DNA of 46,290 bases from Escherichia phage PhiR46_1: sequence record PV340565.1. The stretch is one strand, 5' to 3'. The notes beneath the pieces are model-generated. The model saw only the letters and a list, made by a program, of their open reading frames with translations, did not search any database and had not been told where the DNA came from. Shown piece after piece: positions 2,150 through 2,860 of this stretch. The first letter of the stretch is position 1. Every line of letters starts with the position of its first letter. Made by a program: the position numbers and the translations under genes.

Positions 2150-2314
2150 CTACCTCGCCTGCCCCTTTTCGTCCTCATCCAACTTTCTGATAGCCGTAGA
2201 ATCAATACCCGCCGCCATACACACATCAGATGCAACAAACCACGGTTCGCCGTTGATCATCACTACACGAACCTGATGCTCTTCCTGAAAGGAAAAGACT
2301 GCTAACGCGCTCAT
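2150..2314 (-). pseudogene. Truncated BRO-N / antirepressor-type N-terminal domain ORF (54 aa)
   Basis: Hand translation: MSALAVFSFQEEHQVRVVMINGEPWFVASDVCMAAGIDSTAIRKLDEDEKGQAR. The motif R-V-x-x-I-x-G-E-P-W-F-V-A-x-D-V is typical of BRO-N domains. Too short for a full antirepressor and below the 60-aa ORF track cut-off. Its ATG overlaps the stop of the upstream ORF (ATGA). Confidence 0.5.
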
Positions 2315-2544
2315 TCAGCCTCCTTATCGCGCAGCAAGTGCGACGAGAGAGACGCAGAATATCCCTGTGCTTCATGCGTTAACTCACACGCAATCTGCAG
2401 AAGTTTTCCAGCCTCTGAGAGGTAAATCGACGCCTCACAACTGGAGACTGTCCGATGGGCTGATGATACGAGCGCATAGACCTGAGCCAGACGTTCATCC
2501 AACGATTCCAGCAGGCCAACAGTGTTCATTTTTACCTGATTCAT
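2311..2544 (-). CDS. Hypothetical 77-aa protein, translationally coupled between the icd-like and BRO-N ORFs
   Basis: ORF track; ATGA overlaps at both ends. Confidence 0.45.
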   Translation of the reverse strand: MNQVKMNTVGLLESLDERLAQVYALVSSAHRTVSSCEASIYLSEAGKLLQIACELTHEAQGYSASLSSHLLRDKEAE

Positions 2545-2705
2545 GCAGCCACCTCGCGCACCGGAATACGGGCAGACAATACCAGGACAAACCGGCTGGC
2601 GAACTGGCGACGAGCTTCCCGTTCAGATGACGCGATAGTGGAAAGATGATGAATGTGGGACTTTTTGTCTGTGCGAACGACTGCCGCAAATTTGAATTTG
2701 AACAT
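2541..2705 (-). CDS. Icd-like small protein (host cell-division inhibitor family of P1/P4-type elements), 54 aa
   Basis: Hand translation: MFKFKFAAVVRTDKKSHIHHLSTIASSEREARRQFASRFVLVLSARIPVREVAA. The SEREARR...F.L.F.ARIP motif resembles recalled Icd-like proteins. GGAG ribosome-binding site 9 nt upstream. Not in the ORF track because it is under 60 aa. Confidence 0.55.
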   Translation of the reverse strand: MFKFKFAAVVRTDKKSHIHHLSTIASSEREARRQFASRFVLVLSARIPVREVAA

Positions 2706-2860
2706 GGTATGCACTCCGTTTTATTGGTCGTGCTACCACCAGAGTTGCGAATCTCTTTATTGGTGGTAGCCCAGGCGGGGTTCGCAATACCGGTAAACGA
2801 AGAAACCGGCCCGACCGAAGTCAGCCCCACCTGAGCCACCATAATTCGGATATGCGCAGG
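2706..2860 (-). ncRNA. Candidate structured leader / small regulatory RNA upstream of the icd-like ORF (c4/CI-like riboregulator candidate)
   Basis: On the minus strand GCTACCACCA (plus 2733-2742) and TGGTGGTAGC (plus 2761-2770) form a perfect 10-bp stem that adjoins the icd ribosome-binding site. An upstream segment TGGTGGCTCAGGTGGGG (plus 2824-2840) can pair alternatively with CCCCGCCTGGGCTACCACCA (plus 2761-2780). An internal hairpin CCGGT...ACCGG lies between. Mutually exclusive pairings suggest attenuation or antisense control. Confidence 0.35.

Follow-up and report, generated by a model that had tools for sequence, protein, structure and literature searches.

In phage N15, the secondary immunity region immA has the layout Pa - Ta - CA RNA - icd (gene 32) - antA (gene 31) - antB (gene 30) (Ravin, Svarchevsky & Deho 1999, cited in PMC4488713 and PMC2847241). 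Its genes are icd, antA and antB, the last without a known function (PMC4488713). In P4, processing of the leader yields the CI RNA, which pairs with seqA and seqC and in this way brings about termination (PMC4825925). Relatives of CI and seqA are detected by the Rfam models C4 and isrK (PMC10111431). We analysed a stretch of 46,290 nucleotides from Escherichia phage PhiR46_1 (PV340565.1; the whole stretch is called the window). The minus strand of positions 2150-2984 is, with a probability of roughly 0.85, an immA-type secondary immunity (anti-immunity) operon of an N15-like linear plasmid prophage. The system itself is already known as N15 immA. What this copy reveals is which of the RNA pairings are conserved.

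A first reading of positions 2150-2860, made from the letters alone (the original prediction), had proposed a riboregulated operon of the P1 immI or P4 CI-RNA type, with small coupled open reading frames (ORFs) beside telN. This interpretation is partly supported and largely right. The matches to Rfam C4 and isrK and to the Icd-like family of NCBIfam agree with it, and the place beside telN is that of N15 immA. Nevertheless, its coordinates omit the upstream half of the leader (promoter 2984-2955, IsrK-like RNA 2948-2873 and terminator 2894-2877). It also overlooked the main logic, the antisense pairing, in trans and in cis, of the C4 loops with the targets a1/b1 and a2/b2.

The setting of the operon defines the element. 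The ORF list contains the protelomerase gene telN (203-2104, plus strand) and a large repA (4314-8309, minus strand). The operon adjoins telN and is transcribed towards it, in the order leader RNA - icd - antA - antB, as in N15 immA. The immA-type region shows 91% nucleotide identity with Escherichia phage YDC107_1 (genus Ravinvirus). With N15 it shows 79%, across genes 31-33 and a rho-independent terminator that is annotated there. Some complete E. coli plasmids of about 46 kb contain identical copies. A 22-bp telO-type palindrome, CCATTATACGCGCGTATAATGG, lies with matching flanks at both ends of the window (1-22 and 46269-46290), so the record would represent the linear plasmid prophage as sequenced across its two hairpin telomeres, or an equivalent permutation. 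Considering telN, repA, the telO ends, the identity with N15 and YDC107_1 and the plasmid copies of about 46 kb together, the element is therefore an N15-like linear plasmid prophage. The search of the whole window with Rfam returned C4 and isrK, and no other RNA family.

The centre of the leader is an antisense RNA with these parts:

2846-2759, minus strand: C4 / CI / CA-type antisense RNA of 88 nt (Rfam RF01695 C4)
2841-2825 (5' arm) and 2780-2764 (3' arm), minus strand: C4 closing stem of 17 bp
2824-2811, minus strand: C4 hairpin 1
2810-2789, minus strand: C4 hairpin 2, whose 12-nt loop contains b' CUUCGUUU at 2802-2795
2787-2781, minus strand: single-stranded a' UUGCGAA, just before the 3' arm
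2763-2761, minus strand: CCA tail of C4

The Rfam match is full length (1-87 of 87) and scores 82.3 bits against a gathering score of 45 (E 5.7e-16). The predicted fold has -48.1 kcal/mol and a z of -5.6, and none of 200 shuffles was as good. Across 34 diverse leaders, 99.7% of the cells are paired and 13 pairs show compensatory changes. The check by folding and covariance that had been proposed for this region thus supports the stems. An "alternative partner" placed at 2824-2840 does pair, but it is really the 5' arm (2825-2841) of the closing stem. Likewise, the "internal hairpin" exists, in the form of the two inner C4 hairpins.

This region has been annotated as protein. On RefSeq copies, the Prokaryotic Genome Annotation Pipeline (PGAP) labels it an incomplete "ash family protein" pseudogene (2759-2881 of the window, minus strand; 2260-2382 in L004). 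GenBank U63086 has a "cA secondary immunity repressor" protein over C4 and icd. One may then suppose that 2759-2881 encodes a protein, in the frame of "ash family", of the old N15 "cA" and of Gifsy-1 orf45, with its AUG in the C4 5' arm, and that the RNA structure is incidental. An ORF in that frame does run over 2881-2495, and translation of orf45 has been reported in Gifsy-1 (PMC4825925). However, the substitutions follow base-pairing and not codons, with 124 cells changed on both sides in the C4 helices. PGAP itself flags the feature as incomplete or pseudo in an identical plasmid, and the frame continues through icd in another phase. In Gifsy-1, moreover, the nucleotide sequence is conserved and the amino-acid sequence is not (PMC4825925). 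We consider the coding explanation extremely improbable. Both the "ash family protein" and the cA calls sit on an RNA gene.

Upstream of C4, the leader contains the following elements:

2984-2955, minus strand: promoter-like site (Pa equivalent), with -35 TTGACG at 2984-2979, an 18-nt spacer and -10 TAAAGT at 2960-2955
2948-2873, minus strand: IsrK/seqA-like leader RNA (Rfam RF01394 isrK, 52.8 bits against a gathering score of 50)
2948-2929, minus strand: leader hairpin 1, 100% paired, with compensatory changes in 4 of 7 pairs
2928-2911, minus strand: leader hairpin 2, whose loop displays target a1
2894-2877 plus U-run, to about 2870, minus strand: intrinsic terminator (Ta/t1 equivalent), from the terminator search

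The promoter is the sole sigma-70-like site within 2050-3150, and both hexamers are kept in 31 related leaders. From the position of the -10 and the beginning of the isrK match, the transcription start is predicted near 2948. The layout is that of RF01394, with two 5' hairpins and an intrinsic terminator directly 3' of the promoter. The N15 record has a rho-independent terminator annotated at the homologous position.

Two further repeats were observed around the promoter. A perfect 20-bp palindrome, CCCCGTGACTGGTCACGGGG, occupies 3005-3024 (arms 2993-3013 / 3016-3036), about 20 bp upstream of the -35. It is kept with small variations in nearly all N15-like leaders and could be an upstream operon end or a protein-binding site. 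The promoter spacer GTGTGCGTCGTTTTG (2965-2979, minus strand) is 87% complementary over 15 nt to the b1/terminator-proximal segment 2895-2909. This may be chance or a relic.

The interior of C4 has two pairs of targets in the same transcript:

2922-2916, minus strand: target a1 UUCGCAA, in the loop of leader hairpin 2
2907-2900, minus strand: target b1 AAACGAAG, just 5' of the terminator
2751-2745, minus strand: target a2 UUCGCAA, in the loop of a small AGAG/CUCU hairpin (2756-2741)
2721-2714, minus strand: target b2 AAACGGAG, overlapping the icd Shine-Dalgarno (SD) sequence GGAG (2717-2714), 8 nt before the AUG

The a' strand is complementary to a1 and a2, and b' to b1 and b2. The matches are exact or near-exact over 7-8 nt. 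The small hairpin at 2756-2741 is 99% paired across the aligned leaders but invariant. The c4 RNA of P1, in the work of Citron & Schuster 1990 and Biere et al. 1992, is said to recognise a1/b1 and a2/b2 through a' and b', with icd as the first gene and needed for downstream expression. The layout of the targets here is this P1 c4 arrangement combined with the leader terminator of P4 and N15.

A search with the Icd protein gave 48 related loci, from which 32 distinct leaders were aligned. The proposed leader structure is 93.8% paired in them, with 13 pairs changed on both sides, and none of 500 shuffles reaches the observed values. Five a-types and six b-types are represented among the 32 leaders. 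Without exception, a change in a' goes with changes in a1 and a2, and one in b' with changes in b1 and b2. The predicted duplexes between the C4 interior and its cognate targets average -27.0 kcal/mol (upstream) and -24.7 kcal/mol (downstream), compared with -17.8 and -17.7 kcal/mol for the targets of other phages. Between otherwise similar plasmids, the differences cluster in 2700-2960. Between lineages, they concentrate in the specificity loops, with compensation. The co-variation of a' and b' with both target pairs means, therefore, that antisense recognition is under strong selection. The a-types and b-types occur in shuffled combinations, which would imply many immA heteroimmunity groups and recombination between the two modules. 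With at least five a-type and at least six b-type modules in N15-like phage-plasmids, a grid of such groups is predicted.

Downstream of b2, there are three genes:

2705-2541, minus strand: icd-like gene, 54 amino acids (from ATG 2705), cell-division-inhibitor family
2544-2311, minus strand: antA homologue, 77 amino acids, candidate small antirepressor, its ATG overlapping the icd stop
2314-2150, minus strand: truncated antB, 54 amino acids, with residues 1-51 of a BRO-N/Ant-type protein of about 258 amino acids plus Q-A-R-stop, its ATG overlapping the antA stop

The ORFs of 54, 77 and 54 amino acids had been described with ATGA overlaps, and these 4-base stop/start overlaps are present at 2541-2544 (icd/antA) and 2311-2314 (antA/antB). 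The idea that routine annotation would miss the locus holds for the RNA, mis-annotated as "ash family protein", but not for the ORFs, since PGAP calls all three in identical RefSeq plasmids.

The icd-like identity had been predicted, and the profile search of the 54-amino-acid protein agrees. It matches NCBIfam NF033153 phage_ICD_like at full length (67 bits, cut-off 25) and shares 94% identity with the C-terminal 54 amino acids of N15 gp32. In the PGAP annotation it is called "host cell division inhibitor Icd-like protein". No Icd family was matched in Pfam. Its lone match there was LtuB (18 bits, cut-off 25), which we rejected as sub-threshold noise. The NCBIfam result settled the protein as Icd-like. 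A scan of genome contigs with the Icd alignment found 3 loci.

The 77-amino-acid protein is 63% identical to N15 gp31. The proposed profile search with it returned phrog_10889 "anti-repressor" (E 1e-18). It is also 35% identical over 48 amino acids to the 87-amino-acid AntA of PY54 (E 5e-9). A sequence search of the PDB with AntA found no match. In N15, the antA that was cloned is gene 31 (pCD31sop), and the antirepressor operon consists of genes 30-32. AntA alone has been used as antirepressor, for example to raise the copy number (PMC2847241). In Yersinia telomere phages, an antA homologue prevents lysogenisation (PMC10612081). In this phage family, the small AntA is the antirepressor that works, and its 77-amino-acid homologue at this locus, which is intact, would have the same role. 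We also considered the BRO-N protein as "the" antirepressor. It was rejected because the PY54 antA is the 87-amino-acid homologue of the 77-amino-acid ORF and the N15 antA is gene 31. For annotation, the RefSeq 77-amino-acid "hypothetical protein" can be named a probable AntA antirepressor, and the "ash family" pseudogene is a C4-type RNA gene.

Between C4 and icd, two more elements are present:

2741-2732, minus strand: anti-arm element UGGUGGUAGC, complementary to 2770-2761, which comprise the final 7 nt of the C4 3' arm and the CCA tail
2739-2704, minus strand: ribosome-binding site (RBS) hairpin, in which 2739-2730 pairs with 2714-2711 and 2709-2704 (GUGC-A-UACCAU)

The 10-bp inverted repeat 2732-2741 / 2761-2770 is perfect (100% complementary), with 19 nt between the arms. 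A stem given as 2733-2742 with 2761-2770 in the original prediction is therefore real, although its first arm was one base off. The isolated alternative hairpin has -19 kcal/mol and a z of -3.4. The RBS hairpin encloses b2, the SD GGAG and the AU of the icd AUG (2705-2703), with a z of -2.9. In N15-family leaders it is 94.8% paired, with compensatory changes in 3 pairs.

Within the N15 family, the helix between the 3' arm and the anti-arm is invariant on both strands, so that a test there is uninformative. For this reason, we gathered diverse C4 loci: P4, PY54, chromosomal E. coli elements and, through a structure-anchored DNA pattern, 120 viral contigs. An alignment of 34 distinct leaders was made with MAFFT. 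The arm/anti-arm helix is 90.8% paired in these leaders, against 81.6% in shuffles and 19-47% when slid. Six of its 9 pairs changed on both sides, with 36 such cells against 12.3 expected, and 0 of 500 shuffles did the same. The anti-arm tracks the arm across 16 arm types. In P4 the pair is GCUAUCGCC/GGCGAUAGC, and others are GCUACCACC/GGUGGUAGC, GUCACCGCC/GGCGGUGAC, UCCAUCACC/GGUGAUGGG, UUCGCCACC/GGUGGCGAU and UCCGCCACC/GGUGGCGGU. It follows from this co-variation that the pairing is selected. In C4/CI-type leaders, the anti-arm lies 17-21 nt downstream of the 3' arm plus tail, within the 5' strand of a hairpin that covers the RBS. For 32 of 37 diverse leaders, folding predicts that it pairs downstream in a hairpin over the RBS or the SD.

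A separate observation concerns the E. coli chromosome. Leaders with C4 and isrK also occur in chromosomal P4/P2-like elements (L061, L062), upstream of a "derepression protein" gene and without icd. They retain a co-varying anti-arm element. The search that identified plasmid copies also yielded 52 chromosomal places.

These pairings could also be read as a mainly cis-acting bistable switch, with the trans RNA secondary. The C4 closing stem and the RBS hairpin would form the off state. Pairing of the C4 3' arm with 2741-2732 would form the on state, with the icd start free and no maturation of C4. The perfect complementarity at this locus, its co-variation and the place of the anti-arm in an RBS- or SD-covering hairpin fit such a switch. 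In addition, when the 5' arm is blocked, the predicted SD-AUG accessibility goes up from 0.22 to 0.50, and the IsrK locus of Gifsy-1 toggles between two conformers (PMC4825925). However, the 17-bp closing stem forms first during transcription and is far more stable. When the 10-bp stem is imposed, the fold is about 5.7 kcal/mol less favourable, and the 5' arm released in this way captures the icd start region and sequesters the AUG again. The co-variation fits cis pairing and a strand exchange between mature C4 and its target alike, and the co-variation of a' and b' with both target pairs indicates strong selection on antisense recognition. A mainly cis switch is, in our opinion, unlikely. The mutually exclusive pairings of the original prediction do co-vary and are selected, but the 10-bp stem is not dominant. 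It is predicted to be a weaker alternative (a minor state) to the closing stem.

What the anti-arm does can be proposed in two ways. In cis, it could trade the maturation of C4 against translation of the first gene, with the folding of C4 and the access of RNase P to its tail set against occlusion of the RBS. Alternatively, mature C4 and target could undergo a four-strand exchange after the loop-loop contact, which would lock the complex. The anti-arm might also meet the 3' arm of mature C4 in trans, but the cis hairpin is simpler. Since the sites are non-nested relative to a':a2 and b':b2, the trans geometry would have to be pseudoknot-like or involve strand exchange.

Returning to antisense control as the preferred reading, the following mechanism can be proposed for the immA-type operon. 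A constitutive promoter at 2984-2955 would start the leader, whose first 76 nt (IsrK/seqA-like) hold a1 and b1 and end in the intrinsic terminator. Many transcripts would stop there (2894-2870), leaving a 76-nt IsrK/seqA-like RNA. Those that read through would contain C4, a2, the anti-arm, b2 and the three coupled ORFs. Excision of C4 in P1 and P4 involves RNase P. By analogy with them, the 88-nt tRNA-like C4 would be excised and would accumulate. Its b' loop and a' strand might pair with a1/b1 on nascent leaders, which would increase leader termination and result in autoregulation, as in P4 and N15. As in P1, the C4 loops might also pair with a2/b2 and hide the icd RBS, leaving icd untranslated. 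The antA gene and the antB remnant would be silenced together with icd, because their starts lie in the ATGA stop/start overlaps (translational coupling, polarity). When C4 is limiting, Icd would block division and AntA would inactivate the CB prophage repressor. With both proteins made, the plasmid prophage would be pushed towards lytic growth or a higher copy number. In a second, cis layer, 2741-2732 would either close the RBS with the icd start or pair with the end of the C4 3' arm, competing with the folding of C4. For the RNA processing, the termination control, the translational repression and the activity of AntA, this scheme follows the homologues. The RNA family memberships, the structures, the complementarities and their co-variation, the protein homologies and the deletion in antB are observed directly.

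Several points weigh against this reading. Its evidence is at the level of sequence, and expression of the operon is predicted. The promoter matches the consensus at 9 of 12 positions with an 18-nt spacer, which is not significant by itself. The isrK match is only marginally over its threshold. The Rfam model RF03163 c4-a1b1 scores 24.8 bits at this locus, below its gathering score of 46.7; the relative L052 passes it with 47.4 bits. The putative role of a1/b1 at this locus is supported by complementarity instead of the c4-a1b1 model. Either leader termination or the block of icd translation may be the dominant step. The CA RNA of N15 is said, in secondary sources on Ravin et al. 1999, to promote termination at Ta.

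The antB gene is truncated in this copy. A full-length AntB (about 258-264 amino acids, with BRO-N and a C-terminal Ant/KilAC-like part) is absent from the locus. The 54-amino-acid product matches Pfam PF02498 Bro-N at positions 1-41 of 96 only (30.7 bits), so that the domain is incomplete. The remnant is 94% identical to residues 1-51 of the 258-amino-acid protein of YDC107_1 and equals the start of the 264-amino-acid N15 gp30. In the alignment with both phages, a single clean 738-bp deletion joins GAAAAGGG to GCAGGCGAGG in the G-run 2162-2165. It removed 207 of the 258 codons, added Q-A-R-stop and moved the operon end beside the telN-proximal hairpin. This hairpin is the following:

2116-2139, no strand assigned: perfect 10-bp inverted repeat AAGGCACCGA/TCGGTGCCTT, between the convergent telN and operon, kept in YDC107_1

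The repeat is likely a two-way hairpin for transcript ends. The terminator search gives a weak terminator-like site there on the minus strand.

E. coli plasmids commonly carry the 738-bp deletion allele. The query aligns as a single piece with at least 17 complete plasmids, compared with about 9 in two pieces (full-length antB). The one-piece plasmids belong to lineages that are 100%, about 93% and 91.6% identical. The 54-amino-acid protein is identical in the about-93% lineage (WP_001542490.1) and has another accession in the 91.6% lineage (WP_072119805.1). These lineages carry at least three different C4 specificities. Among the viral contigs, the allele is found with three different leader types, and the leader type of the window is also found with full-length antB.

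A decayed anti-immunity module had been suggested for this locus. The truncation of the BRO-N ORF is correct, but the suggestion of decay is overstated, because AntA is intact and the truncated gene is antB. A non-functional remnant would be consistent with the lost codons, with a product that spans less than half of the Bro-N profile and with a nonsense codon at the same place in a second lineage (L012). Nevertheless, icd and antA are intact and conserved. No damage is seen in the promoter, the terminator, C4 or any of the four target sites, and these parts match one another. The lineage differences in the specificity loops are compensated. The wide distribution of the allele in plasmids also argues against decay, and PY54 is naturally without antB (PMC4488713). 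We therefore regard a decayed locus as very improbable. Since antB was repeatedly lost at one structured site while icd and antA were kept, it can be argued that antB is dispensable for plasmid-prophage life in E. coli.

The site of the deletion has a structure of its own. Full-length antB genes of relatives have a 9-bp hairpin in the codons that directly follow D-E-D-E-K. Its stems are wholly different between lineages, for example GGGTGTAAC/GTTACACCC, GGGTGGGTA/TACCCACCC and GGGTCTGCA/TGCAGACCC. The relatives compared were L003 (YDC107_1), L008, L020, L022, L024, L025, L030 and L042, with a wider BRO-N set (L184-L186, L187-L266). The hairpin is 97.5% paired, 5 of its 9 pairs are compensatory, and 0 of 500 shuffles equal it. 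The deletion in the window begins at its first G, and in L012 an in-frame TAA in its loop gives a 55-amino-acid product. Among 50 distinct BRO-N genes of viral contigs, 50% have a perfect stem of at least 7 bp after D-x-D-E-K/R, against 11% of control windows. The stems have 7-11 bp, unrelated sequences and a constant T-N-A centre, and the phase of the reading frame differs between lineages. So, the constraint acts on the nucleic acid and shapes the peptide, in which the hairpin forces reverse-complement codon pairs. A search of the literature gave no relevant report of such a hairpin in Bro-N genes.

The arm/anti-arm pairing and the BRO-N internal hairpin are the only parts of this locus that may be new. 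No description of the former was found in a literature search that most primary P1, P4 and N15 papers lay beyond. We suggest, tentatively and at less than even odds, that the pairing is a conserved and perhaps undescribed part of C4/CI-type immunity leaders, and that the BRO-N hairpin dictates the peptide and marks the antB breakpoint. If true, the co-variation of the anti-arm across distant C4 systems would add an extra structural step to a textbook antisense system.

Compared with N15 immA, the locus has the same position beside telN, gene order, strand, promoter, terminator, C4-type RNA and ATGA coupling. Icd is 94% and AntA 63% identical. However, the nucleotide identity is only about 79%, and antB is cut to 54 amino acids here by the 738-bp deletion. 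The a' is UUGCGAA instead of UUGAGAA, and b' is CUUCGUUU instead of CUUCUUGU, with all four targets changed to match. Both recognition modules differ, so heteroimmunity at immA is predicted and cross-immunity is not expected.

With the immI region of P1 and P7 (c4 RNA - icd - ant1/ant2), it shares the Rfam C4 family, the a'/b' target layout, b2 over the icd RBS and icd as the first gene. In contrast, its antirepressor is the 77-amino-acid AntA, unrelated to Ant1/2, and its downstream genes are of AntA type plus a BRO-N remnant. The intrinsic terminator between a1/b1 and C4 is in the style of P4 and N15, unlike P1. A tblastn search with this Icd did not reach P1 at E <= 0.01. The locus would work like P1 immI but is not a member.

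The immunity region of P4 (PLE - seqA/t1 - CI RNA - seqC) likewise has an isrK-type leader with a terminator, a C4-type RNA and an Icd-like ORF (L058: isrK 541-618, C4 726-813). Termination there depends on CI (PMC4825925). The complementarity between the 3' arm and the downstream anti-arm is also present, with two compensatory differences. However, the P4 anti-arm hairpin excludes the start codon, and the downstream genes are epsilon and replication genes, not antA/antB.

At the locus IsrK - orf45 - anrP of Salmonella Gifsy-1, too, an isrK leader has a terminator that allows read-through, and then comes a processed C4-like RNA (STnc1160). Translation there is under the control of alternative conformers, and a downstream gene is coupled through AUGA (PMC4825925). 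On the other hand, in Gifsy-1 the short leader RNA activates in trans, the coupled gene is an antiterminator, and icd and antA are absent. The PhiR46_1 locus is a homologue of the N15 system described in 1999, related to P1 immI and to P4 immunity, and the main value of its analysis is correct annotation.

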